Virus record (IMG/VR): IMGVR_UViG_648276660_000001
From: a virus
Taxonomy: Duplodnaviria; Heunggongvirae; Uroviricota; Caudoviricetes
Strand: one strand, 5' to 3'
DNA length: 30,880 nucleotides
The position numbers were made by a program, and so were the translations under genes. The notes beneath the pieces were generated by a model. That model made no database searches. It had not been told where the DNA came from and was given only the letters and a program-made list of their open reading frames with translations. Every line of letters starts with the position of its first letter. Positions within the stretch are counted from its first letter, which is position 1. This document shows positions 1 to 29,798 of this stretch, piece by piece.

Positions 1-117
1 GGCGGTCTTTTCATATCTATTCGTACCTCAAAGGTAATAAAAAACCAAATCTGGTTGATCTTTTTTTTGTGTCAGCACAAAATGACCGTAATCCCAATAC
101 TAATAACAGGGCTTACC

Positions 118-2436: not shown

Positions 2437-3000
2437 ATGGAAAGTAATATCAAATGGTTAGTTGCCGCCGGGCATGAGATGGCTTCTGAACTGAAAGCAG
2501 AATGTGGTGCCGTTGATATGCGCAGTGTGGCAAAGCTGATCAGCGATTTGGCAACGCAACTGGAAGTGCAACTGGTGCGTGCTAATGCGCTGGCCGAAGA
2601 CCAGCAGAAAGCGATTGAGTCAATTAAGCAGGCTGATGCAGCTGTTAAGTTGGCACACGAGAAGTTTTCGGCGCTGGCAGCGGAGAATGCGGGGCTAAAG
2701 TCTGGCGCTATGGACGAAATCAAGGTTATCAACCGTGGAGGGCAGGCATATTGCGTAAAAGATGGAGTGCAAGTTAATCCCATGTATGCAAGAGGGTGGA
2801 ATGACTATCGCGCAAAGTCTCTGCAATCAGACACCCCAGCTACCGATGCTTTTCTGGCTGAAATTGAACGCAAAGCAATCCGCAAGTTCATTAACAGCAT
2901 TGAACACATCCTGCGTGACAAGCTGTCTCCGTATGACACCGAAGAGATGCTTGAGGCTATGCGTATTTTTCTGGAAGAACAGAGTGGTGAGCAAAAATGA
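2437..3000 (+). CDS. Hypothetical protein
   Basis: 187-aa ORF with GAGGG RBS upstream of ATG; same strand and operon context. Confidence 0.65.
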   Translation: MESNIKWLVAAGHEMASELKAECGAVDMRSVAKLISDLATQLEVQLVRANALAEDQQKAIESIKQADAAVKLAHEKFSALAAENAGLKSGAMDEIKVINRGGQAYCVKDGVQVNPMYARGWNDYRAKSLQSDTPATDAFLAEIERKAIRKFINSIEHILRDKLSPYDTEEMLEAMRIFLEEQSGEQK

Positions 3001-3314
3001 CAATCACAAAACAACGGGTAGAAGAAATCATATCCCGCATTGAAATGTATGGACATGGTGCAGGATATACCGCTGACGAGGTTTATGACCTAGCTGTACT
3101 GGCGCTGAATTTATCAAATATCGCAAACCTGAAGCGATACGAGCTTGATATGGGTGGTTGTGACTCGTGCGGTCAGGATTGTGGCGCTGACATGACTGAA
3201 GATTCTGATGGCAATTATGTCCTGTTTGATGACGTGGTTAAGTTGTTTGAGTTTGATACAACCACTCAGAAGTTAGAAGGCCCAGCAAAGGAGGCAACCA
3301 GTGAGCAAGATTGA
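2997..3314 (+). CDS. Hypothetical protein
   Basis: 105-aa ORF; ATGA start/stop overlap with the upstream gene (translational coupling). Confidence 0.6.
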   Translation: MTITKQRVEEIISRIEMYGHGAGYTADEVYDLAVLALNLSNIANLKRYELDMGGCDSCGQDCGADMTEDSDGNYVLFDDVVKLFEFDTTTQKLEGPAKEATSEQD

Positions 3315-3876
3315 CTATCAGGCACTGCGTGAAAAGGCAGAGAAAGCAACGTGTGGTGTGTGGTCGCTCGAATATGGAGAGGGACGATTTGATGGTGATG
3401 ATGCACTAATTCATCGCGAGGTTGCTGGATATATTCCTATTTGCAGAATTGAAGGAGCGCATCCTGAAAGCGGTTTCGATGAAGATTTCCAAACTGAACA
3501 GCAGGCCAATGCTGAATTCATCGCCGCAGCCAATCCGGCTACTGTGCTGGCGCTTCTGGATGAACGGGAAAGAAACCAGCAATACATCAAATCACGCGAC
3601 CAGGAGAACGAGGATATTGCGCTAACGGTAGGGAAGCTGCGCGTTGAGCTGGAAGCCGCAGAGAAGCGCATAGCAGAACTGGAAGCGCGGGAAGTTCAAT
3701 TACCGACTCGCTACGACCTTCGATATGGACATCCGATAAATGCAGATGAGCGACATGTCATGATACCTAAAGAAAATGGCAGTTGGCTTTACCTGATTGA
3801 CCTAGAACACGCATTACGCGTCGCTGACATTCGCATCAAAGGAGACGCAGGAGAACAAAACGATGAAAAACCGTAA
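3301..3876 (+). CDS. Ead/Ea22-like family protein (tentative)
   Basis: GTG start with AGGAGG RBS 7 nt upstream; translation contains NAEFIAAANPATVLALLDERE and a coiled-coil-like segment recalled from Ea22-like prophage proteins. Confidence 0.65.
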   Translation: MSKIDYQALREKAEKATCGVWSLEYGEGRFDGDDALIHREVAGYIPICRIEGAHPESGFDEDFQTEQQANAEFIAAANPATVLALLDERERNQQYIKSRDQENEDIALTVGKLRVELEAAEKRIAELEAREVQLPTRYDLRYGHPINADERHVMIPKENGSWLYLIDLEHALRVADIRIKGDAGEQNDEKP

Positions 3877-6875: not shown

Positions 6876-6892
6876 ATTACCACAACGGTAAC
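6876..6892. promoter_or_regulatory. Variant copy of the TTACC-N5-GGTAA palindrome (ATTACCacaacGGTAAC) just upstream of the terminase small subunit start
   Basis: Half-sites TTACC and GGTAA separated by 5 nt as in the eight consensus copies, but central flanking bases differ. Confidence 0.35.
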
Positions 6893-6908
6893 AATTACCA
6901 CGGTGGTT

Positions 6909-7505
6909 ATGATGCCTGCTGAACCTAAAACCTATAAACGCAAATCAACGCAATTTAAGCCGCTCACAGCAATGCAGGAGGCTTATTGCCAGTCATACAT
7001 CAAAACGCCTGAAAACCAGACTCAGGCAGCGATTAACGCAGGATTCTCCCCAAATACAGCGGCAGTTAAAGCCAGTGTCATGATGCGCGATGAACGCATT
7101 CAAAAACGGATTGCCGAGTTGATGGAGGAGCGCAACAAACGAATGCGCGTCAGTGCTGATTACGTTCTCATGCGCTTGGTGGAGATCGACCAGATGGACG
7201 TGATCGATATCCTCAACGACGATGGGAGCCTTAAACCAATCCGTGAGTGGCCGAAAATCTGGCGCACTACGCTTAGTGGCTTTGATCTGTCATCGACCAT
7301 CATGAACATGAACGAGGATTCGATAGAGACAATCCTCAAAAAAATTAAATGGCCTGACAAGGTGAAGAACCTAGAACTGATTGGTAAGCATGTTGATGTC
7401 AACGCGTTCAAAGAACGTCTGGATGTTAATGTGAATGTGACAATTGCTGATCGCATAGCAGCAGCCAGGAAGCGACTCAAAGAACGTCAGGATGGTAATC
7501 AGTGA
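6909..7505 (+). CDS. Terminase small subunit
   Basis: Translation contains LTAMQEAYCQSY...TQAAINAGFSPNTAAVKAS...RIQKRI, resembling recalled terminase small-subunit HTH domains; directly precedes the large subunit; start set at ATG 6909 after a GGTGG RBS (ORF is open from 6831). Confidence 0.75.
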   Translation: MMPAEPKTYKRKSTQFKPLTAMQEAYCQSYIKTPENQTQAAINAGFSPNTAAVKASVMMRDERIQKRIAELMEERNKRMRVSADYVLMRLVEIDQMDVIDILNDDGSLKPIREWPKIWRTTLSGFDLSSTIMNMNEDSIETILKKIKWPDKVKNLELIGKHVDVNAFKERLDVNVNVTIADRIAAARKRLKERQDGNQ

Positions 7506-9685: not shown

Positions 9686-9762
9686 TGGCGTGGCATGCAG
9701 GATTCGAACCTGCGACCAACCGCTTAGAAGGCGGTTGCTCTGTCCAACTGAGCTAATGCCAC
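9686..9762 (-). tRNA. tRNA-Arg (anticodon UCU), phage-encoded
   Basis: Minus-strand 77 nt: GTGGCAT-TA-GCTC-AGTTGGACA-GAGC-A-ACCGC-CTTCTAA-GCGGT-TGGTC-GCAGG-TTCGAAT-CCTGC-ATGCCAC-G-CCA; 7-bp acceptor stem, canonical D, anticodon and T arms; anticodon loop CTTCTAA gives TCT; encoded CCA end. Confidence 0.9.
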
Positions 9763-10084: not shown

Positions 10085-10121
10085 TTACCTAAAGGGTAAT
10101 AATTAGCGCGTTAAATGTCAA
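10085..10121 (-). promoter_or_regulatory. Predicted minus-strand sigma70 promoter (perfect -35 TTGACA at 10116..10121, 17-bp spacer, -10 TACCCT at 10093..10098) whose -10 is the half-site of operator palindrome TTACCTaaaGGGTAAT (10085..10100)
   Basis: Read in sequence; directs transcription toward the tRNA and the 139-aa gene. Confidence 0.45.
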
Positions 10122-26177: not shown

Positions 26178-26591
26178 ATGAAGGAATTATTGCTGTTATC
26201 GGTATTTTTGATATCCGCTTGCTCGACATCCTATGATGTTTATGACGGTGTTGATAAGGCATATTGCGACAAAGTTAAAATGGATTTTTCTCTTGCCAAG
26301 ACGGCGAAGGATAGTTGTATTGATCACTACGTCAAGACTTATACCAAGCCAGCCTCATCGGCATCTGATATTGCTGAAGGTGCTGTGTTTGAGTGTAACA
26401 AGGTGATATCCATCGCAGCGAGTTCTTCATACGATGCTGCTGTATGTGCAATGGCTGAAAGAAACGGCATGTCAGTGCAAAAAATTAATAGCATGATAAG
26501 CAGTAATGACGAAGCCAAAATAAGAACTGATATCAGCTCGGTGAAAAAAGATGCCATGAACAGAGTTGTAAAATATCAGTCATCTTTATAA
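26178..26591 (+). CDS. Putative lipoprotein (cargo gene; candidate superinfection-exclusion or envelope protein)
   Basis: AAGGAA RBS; N-terminus MKELLLLSVFLISAC has a signal peptide with lipobox-like LISA-C; AT-rich relative to neighbours; followed by palindrome copy 3 and a terminator. Confidence 0.65.
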   Translation: MKELLLLSVFLISACSTSYDVYDGVDKAYCDKVKMDFSLAKTAKDSCIDHYVKTYTKPASSASDIAEGAVFECNKVISIAASSSYDAAVCAMAERNGMSVQKINSMISSNDEAKIRTDISSVKKDAMNRVVKYQSSL

Positions 26592-26607: not shown

Positions 26608-26631
26608 GGCCGCTTTCGCGGCCTTGTTTTT
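26608..26631 (+). terminator. Intrinsic terminator (GGCCGC-tttc-GCGGCC followed by TTGTTTTT)
   Basis: Read in sequence between convergent genes. Confidence 0.7.
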
Positions 26632-26791
26632 AACGAATGCCACCGCCACCCGGGCGGGAATCCGCAGAACGCCCACCGCAGCGGGAGCCGTCAGCAGCAG
26701 TGTCGCTGTCGTGCTGACAACGACCGGCAAAGGCCTGAGTTGAAGCTACCAGAGACAACAAAACGAACAGTGCAGCAAATGCTTTTTTCAT
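26630..26791 (-). CDS. Small secreted peptide (53 aa precursor, about 31-aa Gly/Arg/Cys-containing mature part)
   Basis: Minus-strand ATG at 26791; textbook Sec signal MKKAFAALFVLLSLVASTQAFA with AxA cleavage motif; weak RBS; ORF track gives a longer N-terminally extended version. Confidence 0.45.
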   Translation of the reverse strand: MKKAFAALFVLLSLVASTQAFAGRCQHDSDTAADGSRCGGRSADSRPGGGGIR

Positions 26792-26861
26792 TGTGAAATT
26801 TCCATCTATAAGCCACCTCAATGTGGCGTCAATGAGTGTAGCACTGACTTTTGTTTCGCCC

Positions 26862-26884
26862 ACAAAAAAGCCCGCAGCGCGGGC
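26862..26884 (-). terminator. Intrinsic terminator of the minus-strand two-gene operon (GCCCGC-agc-GCGGGC then TTTTTTGT on minus strand)
   Basis: Read in sequence; hairpin overlaps the stop codon at 26884. Confidence 0.65.
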
Positions 26885-27324
26885 TATTCTTCTTCATCAT
26901 TAAAAAGCGGATTGTTGTTTCCATCTGATGAAAGGAAAGGTATGTGTTCTCTTGAAAATCCAACAATGACAATTTCATTATCATTTTTTGCATAATGAAT
27001 GCATTCATTAGAATGCCTTCCGCCAGGGTTGAAATTTAAGTTAATGGTATAATTCTTAAATGTGTTTGGATACCATGTTGGCCCACAATGATAATGCCAA
27101 TAATTCTCTTGCTCATAATTGTCTGAGCCGGGAATTTTATCATGGTTATCATCAACCCACGAGGGCTTGTTTTTTCCAACAAGCGCCCTTCCATTGGCAA
27201 CATCCTCTAAAAAACTTTGTATGATTTTTATTTCATCATCAGTAAGGAAAGGTCCGTCTACAGCGAAAGGGGTGTTGCTTTCCCCATGTAGAAAACTATT
27301 AGATATTCTAATGTTAAACTTCAA
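26884..27324 (-). CDS. Hypothetical cargo protein (about 146 aa; His/Cys-containing motif WHYHCG ... GGRHSNECIHY), second gene of a two-gene operon
   Basis: Predicted TTG start at 27324 with AGGAG RBS 6 nt upstream; the ORF-track N-terminal extension to 27465 overlaps the upstream small gene in another frame; markedly AT-rich. Confidence 0.5.
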   Translation of the reverse strand: MKFNIRISNSFLHGESNTPFAVDGPFLTDDEIKIIQSFLEDVANGRALVGKNKPSWVDDNHDKIPGSDNYEQENYWHYHCGPTWYPNTFKNYTINLNFNPGGRHSNECIHYAKNDNEIVIVGFSREHIPFLSSDGNNNPLFNDEEE

Positions 27325-27344
27325 GGAAAACTCCTGATGTGCTT

Positions 27345-27512
27345 CTATTTGGAGCGAAATGCCGCCTTGAAGTCGCTGAAAGATGTTCCTGTCTGGTAAA
27401 CCATATCCTTGTCGCGCTCTTTGCTTGCGCGGCCAAGCATAACTTTTCCAATGACATCCCAGCATTGCTTGGCTTGTTCATTGTGCTGAGTACGATTTTT
27501 CAACGCTGTCAT
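27345..27512 (-). CDS. Hypothetical small protein (55 aa), first gene of the two-gene operon; absent from the ORF track (below size cut-off)
   Basis: Hand-translated from minus strand: MTALKNRTQHNEQAKQCWDVIGKVMLGRASKERDKDMVYQTGTSFSDFKAAFRSK; AGGAGG RBS 6 nt upstream of ATG 27512; stop TAG at 27345. Confidence 0.55.
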   Translation of the reverse strand: MTALKNRTQHNEQAKQCWDVIGKVMLGRASKERDKDMVYQTGTSFSDFKAAFRSK

Positions 27513-27523
27513 ATCGCGCCTCC

Positions 27524-27567
27524 TTTACCTTTAAGGTAATAGTACGCTATTCACCCACAGTCTGCAA
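27524..27567 (-). promoter_or_regulatory. Predicted minus-strand promoter (-35 TTGCAG at 27562..27567, 17-bp spacer, -10 TACTAT at 27539..27544) with operator palindrome TTTACCTttaAGGTAAT (27524..27540) at the transcription start
   Basis: Read in sequence. Confidence 0.5.
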
Positions 27568-27611: not shown

Positions 27612-28298
27612 TCAGAAGAACCCAGCCTTGTCGTTGATGTACTCCGCGTGGGTCTGGATATCACGCAGGCATTTGCTCACACCAACAATGTAGCAGAACA
27701 TGGTGGTCAGCTCCGCCGCCGCGCCCGATACGTCGTGCCCGTCTTCCTGTAACTGGTTCAGCAGATTCATCAGCAGTGAGTTCTCCGTCAGGCCGAGAAC
27801 ACCAGACGGAGAATGAATCAGGCTGCGGTAGCCGGGCTTCAGTGGGGCACTGTAGGTTTTGTTCTCTATCTTCATTGCCTGCATCACTGCTGATGCTGTG
27901 GCGTTGGCTACCTGGTCGGCAACTATCTTTATGCGTTCTTCCTGCGGGAGCGAGTTTTTAATGTAACTTCCGGTGCGGCGGATCTGAGGAAGAACCTCAC
28001 CTGTAACCCATTTACGAAAGCGGTAGGGGATAGTGCCTGGTGTCACTGCGTCGCGGCAGCGGAGGATCAGTGTGTAGAGGCCTGACTCGTTGATAATATT
28101 GGTTTCACCTTGACGGCCTAAGTTAAATTTAGCCCTTTCATCATCATCAAGAGATTTTATTGACATAGTGGGGTTTGTCAGTTGAAGAGCTTTAATAACG
28201 TCTTTGGCAACAAACCAAGGATTTCCATCAATAACAATGGCTCGAATGGTGGCTTCTGATTCAAAATGAAAAACAGATGGGGTTACGTTAGCAGTCAT
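27612..28298 (-). CDS. Antirepressor (Bro-N N-terminal domain plus Ant/KilA-C-like C-terminal domain)
   Basis: Translation contains FHFESEATIRAIVIDGNPWFVAKDVIKALQL, typical of Bro-N/AntA domains (recalled); ATG 28298 with GGTGA RBS 6 nt upstream (GTG at 28307 is the alternative). Confidence 0.8.
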   Translation of the reverse strand: MTANVTPSVFHFESEATIRAIVIDGNPWFVAKDVIKALQLTNPTMSIKSLDDDERAKFNLGRQGETNIINESGLYTLILRCRDAVTPGTIPYRFRKWVTGEVLPQIRRTGSYIKNSLPQEERIKIVADQVANATASAVMQAMKIENKTYSAPLKPGYRSLIHSPSGVLGLTENSLLMNLLNQLQEDGHDVSGAAAELTTMFCYIVGVSKCLRDIQTHAEYINDKAGFF

Positions 28299-28456
28299 AG
28301 TGATCACCTTTTAGTATGGTTAATCACCACCTGAGGTGCAAATCTCGTTGGTGGTGAGACGTACAGGGTTTGCACTACCGGCTAAAAGGACCCGGCGCAC
28401 CTTTCGGTGCCCCTGCACGTCCCACCATAATTCTGGCATGACTGTGCTATACGCAT

Positions 28457-28478
28457 AAAAAAACCACGTCTGGCGTGG
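28457..28478 (-). terminator. Intrinsic terminator inside the antirepressor leader (CCACG-ccaga-CGTGG followed by TTTTTTT on minus strand)
   Basis: Hairpin plus U7 read in sequence, about 160 nt upstream of the ant start. Confidence 0.5.
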
Positions 28479-28640
28479 TATGCGCCTTTTAGTAATCCGG
28501 GGTGCAAATCCCGGCACTGGATTTTGCCAGTGCCCGATTACTATGGCACAAGAGGAGTGCGATGTAAATTTACCGAAAAGGTAATGATAAGCGCGAAAAA
28601 ACATTAAAATCAACCGTATTTGGTTGATTGCGTTTAACGC

Positions 28641-28678
28641 TTGATCACCTGAAAGCAAGATATTACCTTTAAGGTAAT
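28641..28678 (+). promoter_or_regulatory. Predicted plus-strand promoter (-35 TTGATC 28641..28646, -10 TACCTT 28664..28669) overlapped by operator palindrome ATTACCTttaAGGTAAT (28662..28678)
   Basis: Read in sequence; drives the gene starting at 28698. Confidence 0.45.
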
Positions 28679-28697: not shown

Positions 28698-29426
28698 ATG
28701 GAAGTTTTCTGGATAGTTGTTGGTGTGGTTGCGGTGATTATTTACGTTATCAACCAGAACAAGACTAAGATCTCTGATCGTACGGTCGTTAATCAGAACA
28801 AAACGATAAAGACCGAAGATGGGGAGATAACGATTAATCGTACACAGGTGATAGAGCACACATCTACTCAGTTTCAAAAAACTGGAGGTAACGCGCCTGA
28901 TATTTCCGTACCTCCTGCTTATGATAGTGCGGTAATCCAGACATATTATAAACAGCAGGAGTTAGCAAAAGAGAGGCAACTGATTCAGCCAAAGCCGTTT
29001 ACAGCTGAGCTTCCACCTGGAGTGTCAACGCGTCCGGCATATCATGGAAGATTCCCTGGTGATGACATATCGTCTCAGTCATTTAAAAAAGCACCTCAGG
29101 CAGTATCAGAGCCAGCAAGAATATCTTCTGTATCGCCGCCAAAAGAAGAATCAGCTAACAGAGTTTCAAGCGGTAGCAAGCAGTGCTTGCGATGCAGAAT
29201 AAACCTTCCATATGAAAAATTCAGGAAATCGTCAAAAAATCCGGATGGATTGACTAAGTGGTGTGCAAGGTGTCTCGATGGCCCAAAGAATACACGTCAT
29301 ATGAAGTGGTGCCCAATTTGTAATGTCCGCAGAAAACGAACCAGCTTTTACCCTAATAATCAAAATGCGGACGGCTTAATGGCATGGTGCAAAACGTGCT
29401 GGGACGAGCACAAAGCGAAACGATAG
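28698..29426 (+). CDS. Membrane-anchored protein with C-terminal repeated zinc-ribbon motifs (cargo gene)
   Basis: GAGG RBS; N-terminal hydrophobic helix MEVFWIVVGVVAVIIYVI; C-terminus has four CxxC pairs, two in near-identical context (PDGLTKWCARCLD and ADGLMAWCKTCWD); followed by a terminator. Confidence 0.7.
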   Translation: MEVFWIVVGVVAVIIYVINQNKTKISDRTVVNQNKTIKTEDGEITINRTQVIEHTSTQFQKTGGNAPDISVPPAYDSAVIQTYYKQQELAKERQLIQPKPFTAELPPGVSTRPAYHGRFPGDDISSQSFKKAPQAVSEPARISSVSPPKEESANRVSSGSKQCLRCRINLPYEKFRKSSKNPDGLTKWCARCLDGPKNTRHMKWCPICNVRRKRTSFYPNNQNADGLMAWCKTCWDEHKAKR

Positions 29427-29706: not shown

Positions 29707-29727
29707 CTTATCTTCTCCATGCAATAA

Positions 29728-29743
29728 CTGTATATTTATACAG
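29728..29743. promoter_or_regulatory. Canonical LexA (SOS) box CTGTATATTTATACAG
   Basis: CTGT-N8-ACAG with AT-rich centre read in sequence, overlapping the likely -10 region of the minus-strand gene starting at 29706. Confidence 0.7.
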
Positions 29744-29781: not shown

Positions 29782-29798
29782 ATTACCTGAAAGGTAAT
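29782..29798. promoter_or_regulatory. Operator palindrome ATTACCTgaaAGGTAAT adjacent to a TTGCAA -35-like hexamer of the SOS-box promoter
   Basis: Read in sequence. Confidence 0.5.

Follow-up and report, generated by a model that had tools for sequence, protein, structure and literature searches.

A candidate type II toxin–antitoxin-like gene pair carried as cargo behind the antirepressor gene of a phiV10/epsilon15-like prophage

What do two short, co-oriented genes behind a prophage antirepressor gene encode, and which regulator governs them? These questions are raised by a minus-strand cassette at positions 26,862-27,567 of IMG/VR record IMGVR_UViG_648276660_000001, a 30,880-nucleotide stretch of DNA (the window) that is a Uetakevirus (phiV10/epsilon15-like) prophage of Escherichia coli. 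The cassette, which lies in a region 99.4% identical to Escherichia phage phiv142-3, encodes a 55-residue protein followed by a 146-residue protein. Sequence comparisons and structural models together favor, with a probability of roughly 0.6, the reading that this pair is a type II toxin–antitoxin (TA)-like module of undescribed families, which is carried as exchangeable cargo after the antirepressor gene and is governed by the repressor of the phage. The 146-residue candidate toxin would be an mRNA interferase of the RelE superfamily, possibly a YafO-like one.

An earlier sequence-only reading of this DNA had proposed a promoter, operator, two genes and a terminator on the minus strand, and a scripted check of coordinates found all of these elements in place:

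27562-27567, minus strand: -35-like hexamer TTGCAG (3 of 6 consensus positions), conserved with phage TL-2011b
27539-27544, minus strand: -10-like hexamer TACTAT (4 of 6 consensus positions), separated from the -35-like hexamer by a 17-nt spacer
27525-27539, no strand assigned: perfect 15-bp palindrome TTACCTTAAAGGTAA over the predicted transcription start
27519-27524, minus strand: Shine-Dalgarno sequence AGGAGG, 6 nt before the ATG of the 55-residue gene
27345-27512, minus strand: gene for the 55-residue partner and candidate antitoxin, ATG start, present in the open reading frame (ORF) list; PHROG 8607
27331-27335, minus strand: Shine-Dalgarno sequence AGGAG, 6 nt before the TTG and kept in close homologues
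26884-27324, minus strand: gene for the 146-residue candidate toxin, TTG start, from its translation; PHROG 5954, predicted RelE/ParE fold
26860-26885, minus strand: intrinsic terminator AGCCCGCGCTGCGGGCU followed by U6, with a 7-bp GC stem and a 3-nt loop, starting within the stop codon

Several details of the cassette differ from what had first been described. The promoter, which had been called well formed, matches the consensus at 7 of 12 positions and was not flagged by a consensus scan, so that a σ70-type promoter of moderate, not high, strength is plausible, and the gap between the two genes is 20 nt, not 18 nt. The AGGAGG site and the 55-residue ORF behind it were confirmed, as was the terminator, which has a folding energy of -14 kcal/mol (z = -2.1), and the second gene is AT-richer than its surroundings, as had been noted (GC content of 0.37-0.39 across it vs 0.50-0.56 in the flanks). 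Both genes share one promoter region and one terminator and each has its own Shine-Dalgarno sequence, an arrangement from which we infer co-transcription. In addition, the antirepressor gene upstream is followed by a weak hairpin (GGCACA-GGGA-UGUGCC, -10.1 kcal/mol, z = -0.7), so transcription may also read through from that gene into the pair.

The two ORFs behave as genes by several measures. PGAP calls both of them, TTG start included, in an E. coli chromosome that is 100% identical (WP_000125783.1 and WP_000671198.1, both ‘hypothetical protein’), and the 55-residue ORF, which had been described as missing from an ORF track, is also present in the ORF list. In the TTG frame, positions 1-143 of the PHROG 5954 profile match residues 1-142, and homologues with as little as ~40% identity still have a TTG or ATG start at this position: enterobacterial homologues retain TTG as far as 57% identity, and more distant ones use ATG. 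The profile alignment and the homologue start positions support the TTG start and the reading frame. When compared with a 75%-identical homologue, the ratio of nonsynonymous to synonymous substitution rates (dN/dS) was ~0.16 for the 55-residue gene, and dN was 0.15 with dS saturated for the 146-residue gene. Judged by these comparisons, both ORFs are real genes under purifying selection.

The 146-residue protein matches PHROG 5954, a family annotated ‘unknown function’, over its full length (E = 6.8e-74), and it has no match in Pfam (2025 copy), NCBIfam 20.0 or PADLOC 2.0, nor did a Pfam scan of 27 close and 45 distant homologues yield one. A word-index search retrieved 34 homologues in Enterobacterales, Proteus and Pasteurellaceae, and a full hidden Markov model (HMM) scan of a 50%-identity library placed 119 representative clusters in the family. 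The family alignment contains the motifs GKNKPSWxDD, YWHYHCG, ECIHY and IVGYSxxHIPF; H77, H79 and H127 are invariant among distant members and G50, N52, K53, Y78 and Y111 are near-invariant. Some family members are longer (P0098, P0121, P0130 and others) and were considered as antitoxin-toxin fusions; this was rejected, as their extensions are other domains (e.g., Cys-rich N-termini) and lack the motif found in the partner proteins.

Structure prediction, which had been proposed as a check on the cassette, gave a model of the 146-residue protein from a 27-sequence alignment (AlphaFold2; predicted local distance difference test (pLDDT) 91.9, predicted template modelling score (pTM) 0.86) with a RelE/ParE-type fold, and the top Foldseek matches of this model had target-normalised template modelling scores of 0.5-0.66; a search of the BFVD viral structure library returned nothing significant. 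The protein is accordingly predicted to have the fold of RelE/ParE-superfamily toxins. The statement that its His/Cys-containing block belongs to no known family therefore holds for sequence families, but not at the level of the predicted fold. The model places H77 and H79 together on a β-strand and Y111 on the strand that follows, with H127 located three residues beyond the end of the last strand. The toxins YafQ, HigB, YoeB and RelE have catalytic residues on strands and after the last strand, so the conserved His and Tyr residues of the 146-residue protein appear to sit where RelE-type toxins place their catalytic residues.

Comparison with described systems shows where the pair conforms and where it departs. 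As in RelBE, DinJ-YafQ and YefM-YoeB (HigBA being the exception), the gene for the candidate antitoxin comes first and that for the candidate toxin second, and the predicted placement of His, Lys and Tyr on strands and after the last strand appears to be shared with all four systems. Unlike the toxins of these systems, the 146-residue protein has no detectable sequence similarity to them and is ~60 residues larger, and unlike their antitoxins the 55-residue partner has no ribbon-helix-helix, Phd or helix-turn-helix (HTH) domain and no evident autoregulatory operator specific to it. The PaaR2-PaaA2-ParE2 system of E. coli O157 prophages differs in two respects, because the regulator of the present pair lies outside the cassette, apparently in the form of the phage repressor and its operator, and because the conserved residues of the 146-residue protein point to an RNase and not to a ParE-type poison.

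The closest parallels are YafN-YafO and the gp45/gp44 pair of phage TL-2011b, each of which also has a small upstream gene with the larger toxin gene behind it. YafO is a ribosome-dependent mRNA endonuclease that is treated as a separate family and has no solved structure (PMC7180214). The motif order of the 146-residue family resembles that of YafO (G-(K/R)-(N/D), H-x-H, (V/H)-Y, strand, H), and the family differs from it by an insertion of ~28 residues between strands; none of 71 scanned family members matches Pfam PF13957. The partners differ as well, as YafN is a Phd/YefM-type DNA-binding antitoxin and the 55-residue protein is not, and the sequence of TL-2011b gp45 is likewise unrelated to that of the 55-residue protein.

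The 55-residue protein matches PHROG 8607 end to end (E = 3.6e-39), a family also annotated ‘unknown function’; it has no match in Pfam, NCBIfam or PADLOC, and neither it nor the 146-residue protein was matched in PADLOC-DB v2 at E ≤10. AlphaFold2 predicts a single long helix (pLDDT 71), which is compatible with a protein that folds on binding. A word-index search found only close homologues (80-98% identity), and no DNA-binding domain was identified in the 55-residue protein or in longer partners by Pfam, NCBIfam or PHROG annotation. The families of the candidate toxin and antitoxin are thus absent from Pfam, NCBIfam and PADLOC; RelE-fold type II TA systems on mobile elements are themselves well known.

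The pairing of the two genes is conserved. Every one of 77 IMG/VR loci that contain a relative of the 146-residue protein has an ORF in the same direction whose end lies 0-21 nt ahead of the start of that relative or slightly overlaps it, and in a distant relative the partner ends ~70 nt upstream of the 146-residue-type gene. The pairing is also found in Pectobacterium, in Klebsiella, on Proteus contigs and in one Pasteurellaceae genome; the Pectobacterium pair, too, is located downstream of a Bro-N gene, and in Klebsiella lambdoid prophages the pair lies in the nin region. Partners range from 55 to 211 residues, the N-terminal part being absent, ~60 residues long, or ~140 residues long with a hydrophobic segment, and none of them contains a Pfam domain. 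All have a similar C-terminal motif, which consists of hydrophobic-L-(G/S)-R, ~15 residues, and G-x-S-x-x-D-(F/I)-x-x-A. When an HMM of the short partners was searched against 3,769 ORFs, it retrieved only the longer Klebsiella-type partners (E = 5e-4 to 4e-3), and a second iteration still left the Pasteurellaceae, plasmid and Proteus partners unmatched. Alignment with hhalign placed the short partners and the C-termini of the Pasteurellaceae partners in register (P = 0.004), and the plasmid and Proteus partners are joined to the family by the visible motifs. The adjacent, co-oriented genes and their conserved pairing are features that type II TA systems show. The suggestion that the small-upstream, larger-downstream layout marks a TA candidate gained from the predicted RelE/ParE fold, the constant upstream position of the partner and the presence of the pair on plasmids.

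In one Pasteurellaceae-like lineage (L051 and L054, near 2986-3414), a script indicated that the toxin-like ORF is apparently interrupted after ~45 codons, with the 211-residue partner intact; an interrupted toxin with an intact partner is a pattern frequent among toxin genes.

The distribution of the pair extends beyond phages. Of 5,426 complete E. coli genomes, 77 (~1.4%) contain it, and a tblastn search found the toxin-like gene on 37 plasmids, many of them only 2.9-3.7 kb in size. On these small plasmids, a 62-residue gene is followed after 11 nt by a gene of 152-155 residues, and there is little else besides rep and mob genes, as in NZ_CP023958.1 (L091; 3,264 bp, pair at 1691-2349) and NZ_MG212498.1 (L092; 3,043 bp, pair at 477-1144). 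The small partner gene is absent from the PLSDB gene tables for these plasmids. Such small plasmids are where addiction or defence modules classically occur.

The idea that the pair is cargo within an accessory island was borne out by the conserved edges of the slot that it occupies, by the different two-gene contents of that slot in related phages and by its emptiness in phiV10. Slot junctions were taken from alignments of three phages. The left backbone comprises the 3′ end of the antirepressor gene and the hairpin, to which the comparison with TL-2011b adds the promoter and operator, and on the right the terminator hairpin marks the exact point where backbone begins again, a junction common to three different cargo cassettes. 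The window has the 55- and 146-residue genes in this position. TL-2011b has, in exactly the same slot between promoter/operator and terminator, a 59-residue gene (gp45) and a 181-residue protein (gp44) that scores 26.3 bits against the Pfam YafO_toxin model (cutoff, 25). EC.W1-9 has a 108-residue gene and a DUF2335 membrane protein with a promoter of their own that contains no palindrome. The AT-rich pair is therefore exchangeable cargo, placed under signals that belong to the phage backbone.

To understand how these signals may be controlled, the region upstream of the pair has to be considered, which contains the following features:

27612-28307, minus strand: Bro-N antirepressor gene, 231 residues (Pfam PF02498, E = 5.6e-20), upstream of the pair
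28347-28432, minus strand: C4 antisense RNA (Rfam RF01695, 77.8 bits; gathering score, 45)
28457-28533, minus strand: isrK-like leader (Rfam RF01394, 67.4 bits; gathering score, 50)
28570-28584 and 28663-28677, no strand assigned: two operator palindromes heading the antirepressor operon, from a motif scan

A C4 RNA and an isrK-like leader directly upstream of the Bro-N gene constitute an antirepressor control region of the P1/P7 immI type, and a match to the c4-a1b1 target at 28494-28546 scored 38 bits, below the gathering score of 46.7. Because the C4 and isrK-like RNAs occupy this stretch, a 112-residue ORF at 28320-28658 is probably not a gene. As in P1/P7 immI, the C4 RNA and a target-containing leader precede the antirepressor gene, and repressor operators are scattered over many operons, as they are for P1 C1. 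This likeness concerns the genomic context of the pair and not the pair itself, and to our knowledge P1 immI has no TA-like cargo downstream of ant. The operators also differ, since the P1 C1 site is asymmetric and the one described here is a symmetric 15-17-bp palindrome. In a related Uetakevirus, the antirepressor promotes the lytic cycle, and the repressors of phiv142-3 and phiV10 are identical, overexpression of this protein shutting off lytic transcription (PMC9782041).

The palindrome over the cassette promoter is one of a set. Ten sites of the form TTACC-N5-GGTAA (≤1 mismatch) occur in the window (23-37, 1951-1965, 2013-2027, 6877-6891, 6895-6909, 10085-10099, 27525-27539, 28570-28584, 28663-28677 and 29783-29797), where 0.5 are expected, and the site at 28663-28677 is an exact copy of that in the cassette. 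These sites are intergenic or at promoters and are often paired 48-93 bp apart. There are 15 of them in phiv142-3 and 11 in phiV10, and in both phages two lie between the repressor gene and a divergent cro-like gene and two lie just past the repressor gene. At the cassette promoter, the first base of the palindrome is the last base of the -10 hexamer TACTAT, and the site at 2013 in the window has the same geometry (TTGATT-17-TTTAAT followed by TACC, with the last base of the -10 element at the start of the palindrome). Protein bound to a palindrome in this position would occlude RNA polymerase. The motif is best read, from its positions, as the operator of the main HTH repressor of the phage or of its Cro-like partner, acting over many operons, which suggests a P1-like dispersed operator regulon of the phage repressor. 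The proposal that the cassette is repressible through a palindromic operator at +1 was in this way strengthened, as the site belongs to a phage-wide set that flanks the repressor gene; a dispersed TTACC-N5-GGTAA regulon is apparently undescribed in the literature searched.

Two other ideas about the cassette promoter region were rejected. As an RNA hairpin the palindrome has a folding energy of -6.4 kcal/mol (z = -1.1), and the placement of its copies at promoters across the genome is more in keeping with a DNA operator. The second idea was that the cassette promoter contains a LexA box, but the only good CTGT-N8-ACAG box lies at 29728-29743, before another gene.

Part of this locus has been studied before under another name. 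‘orf10’ of phiv142-3 (QGF19616.1) was deleted and reported as a serum-resistance and colonisation gene of avian-pathogenic E. coli (PMC7724020), the only paper that a literature search by protein accessions retrieved. ‘Orf10’ is a 52-residue ORF (27036-27194 of the window, minus strand; 3437-3595 in L001) that is out of frame with the 146-residue gene, at an offset of 130 nt, and the phiv142-3 GenBank record leaves the 146-residue gene unannotated. The published recombineering arms match positions 27254-27195 and 26976-27035 of the window exactly, so the deletion took codons 44-97 of the 146-residue gene, including the GKNKPSW and WHYHCG motifs. By this mapping, ‘orf10’ is a spurious out-of-frame ORF, and its deletion removed the conserved core of the RelE-like gene. 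Because the ORF under study is out of frame, neither the phenotypes nor the complementation can be assigned to the annotated peptide, and a deletion of this kind does not bear on toxicity.

The same study contains information on expression and phenotype. RNA from the region was 2^4.12-fold higher in serum than in LB medium, with values of 2^4.56 for orf41 and 2^3.68 for orf40 (PMC7724020), two early genes that also lie downstream of such a palindrome. The region is thus transcribed in a culture of the lysogen, and its RNA level varies along with those of early genes, a pattern that either shared operator control or partial induction could produce. Growth of the deletion mutant was normal in LB and weaker in serum, its serum survival was ~60% of that of the wild type, its kps genes were ~2-fold down, and its loads in blood and heart were lower (PMC7724020).

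If the pair is a TA-like module, the following sequence of events can be proposed. In the lysogen, the HTH repressor of the phage would bind the palindrome over the transcription start and keep the bicistronic mRNA at a low level; as no DNA-binding domain can be recognised in the minimal antitoxin, regulation may have been outsourced to the phage repressor. The ATG and AGGAGG of the first gene, compared with the TTG of the second, would yield the 55-residue protein in excess over the toxin, and the helical C-terminal motif of the partner would cover the active face of the toxin. If the partner is labile and not replenished, free toxin would cleave mRNA, probably on the ribosome as do RelE, YafQ and YafO, and cause growth arrest. 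The possible outcome would be a more stably maintained prophage or plasmid, or else abortive infection or exclusion.

Several observations weigh against this interpretation. On the side of the toxin, no RelE, ParE_toxin, YafQ, YoeB, HigB, BrnT, YafO or related model in Pfam or NCBIfam was above threshold, a sequence search of the Protein Data Bank with the family profile gave only spurious matches to delta-crystallin and to His tags, and the Foldseek matches had E-values of 0.2-1, which are not significant. A similarity to YafO, which would favor the interpretation, is weak and marginal when 129 family members are aligned with 28 YafO sequences by hhalign (score 19.4, P = 0.009, 54 columns, with 1 of 150 column shuffles reaching this score); the alignment pairs GKNK with GRDA and WHYH with AHIH, spans the N-terminal half only, and was not extended to the C-terminal His in global mode. 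A 27-sequence alignment gave no hhalign signal against single YafO or TL-2011b gp44 sequences. On the side of the partner, classical autoregulation by the antitoxin is not supported, given the missing DNA-binding domain and a structural model of medium confidence, and the long N-terminal extensions with hydrophobic segments in some partners are unusual for antitoxins. Finally, the operator-controlled promoter argues against the constitutive expression that is usually assumed for addiction modules, and the phenotypes seen on deletion of the core of the 146-residue gene (PMC7724020) are not obviously those of toxin loss.

A broader, tentative extension of the TA-like interpretation, which we regard as rather doubtful in its joint form, would take the slot as a fixed set of phage promoter, operator and terminator that accepts swapped TA-like pairs, so that the growth-arresting RNase is freed only when the repressor fails; gated in this way by the repressor, the device would switch on host shut-off, exclusion or abortive infection. 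The virulence effects ascribed to ‘orf10’ would be accounted for as well, and partners with membrane-anchored extensions would be signal-sensing modules.

The alternative that retains most weight, an unlikely one, is that the pair serves the lytic cycle as an accessory, as a host-takeover or anti-defence device made only after derepression and not as an addiction or defence TA system; the RelE-like protein would then be tuned to RNAs of the host or of competitors, and the small protein would act as a timer or chaperone. A promoter that overlaps an operator of the set controlling early promoters, a position downstream of the antirepressor gene, RNA levels that rise along with those of early genes, and the location of the homologous pair of Klebsiella lambdoid prophages within the nin region, whose transcription normally awaits induction, would all be expected of such a device. 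However, the occurrence of the pair as near-sole cargo of ~3-kb plasmids that lack any phage context fits maintenance or defence better, the EC.W1-9 cargo in the same slot has a promoter of its own that lacks the palindrome, and no anti-defence family was matched.

It is quite unlikely that the 146-residue protein, while still part of a TA pair, is a ParE-like poison that binds a protein such as gyrase, or has some other non-RNA target. The predicted fold is common to both kinds of toxin, but invariant His, Lys and Tyr residues are typical of the catalytic sites of RelE-type RNases such as YafQ, HigB and YoeB. The TL-2011b cargo in the slot is moreover YafO-like, and YafO is an mRNA interferase (PMC7180214).

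The published role of ‘orf10’ suggests a further alternative, in which the locus is a lysogenic-conversion or virulence regulator that confers serum resistance by raising expression of K1 capsule genes and the RelE-like fold is incidental or non-toxic. The mutant phenotypes (PMC7724020) speak for it, as the deletion maps within the 146-residue gene, but they followed the targeting of an out-of-frame ORF and cannot be credited to a defined protein; in addition, the effects are modest and may be indirect, arising from loss of an mRNA interferase or from polar or scar effects, and the family occurs in many genera, phages and small plasmids without a K1 capsule. This alternative is therefore considered very unlikely. 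That the two genes are unrelated and merely travel together is highly improbable, since the weak connection of the partner family across subgroups, which would favor it, is set against an adjacency that holds at 77 of 77 viral loci as well as on plasmids and in distant relatives, even where the neighbours differ, against genes that abut stop to start or overlap in several lineages, and against a partner type that co-varies with the toxin subgroup.

If the TA-like interpretation is correct, the 146-residue protein represents a new, unannotated family of the RelE/ParE superfamily that comprises ~119 clusters (50% identity) and occurs on 3-kb plasmids and in prophages whose hosts are Enterobacterales, Pasteurellaceae-like, or Vibrio or Aeromonas, and its partner represents a new family of minimal antitoxins. 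The locus would also provide a concrete prophage slot with phage-owned expression signals, in which TA-like cargo is placed under the lysis-lysogeny repressor and not under its own antitoxin, and the phenotype published for ‘orf10’ would have to be reconsidered as loss of a putative mRNA interferase.

The window contains several further features. The LexA-box-like sequence CTGTATATTTATACAG at 29728-29743 lies just upstream of a minus-strand gene of 85 residues (ATG near 29712), with a TTACC palindrome 40 bp further upstream. This gene is a homologue of epsilon15 p19, phiV10 p24 and phiv142-3 Orf7 and is one for which Pfam is uninformative; it may encode a small regulator or antirepressor under SOS control. 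The exact palindrome copy at 28663-28677 lies ahead of a 242-residue ORF at 28698-29426 (plus strand), which has a hydrophobic helix at its N-terminus, CxxC repeats at its C-terminus and a weak Stc1-domain match (E = 4e-4). Neither phiv142-3 nor the 100%-matching chromosome NZ_CP033635.1 has a gene annotated here, so the ORF looks like another cargo insertion.

On either side of the cassette terminator lie genes for two small exported proteins, which are candidates for functions in lysogenic conversion or exclusion. One is a 54-residue signal-peptide protein (26630-26794, minus strand) that belongs to PHROG 14503 (‘membrane associated protein’, moron category) and is served by its own good promoter (TTGACG-17-TATAGA); the second is a 137-residue lipoprotein-like protein (26178-26591, plus strand) with an LISAC lipobox. 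Elsewhere in the window, a tRNA gene at 9689-9762 (minus strand; Rfam, 73.3 bits) is located between the terminase region and the portal region and corresponds to the tRNA-Arg(tct) annotated in phiv142-3.

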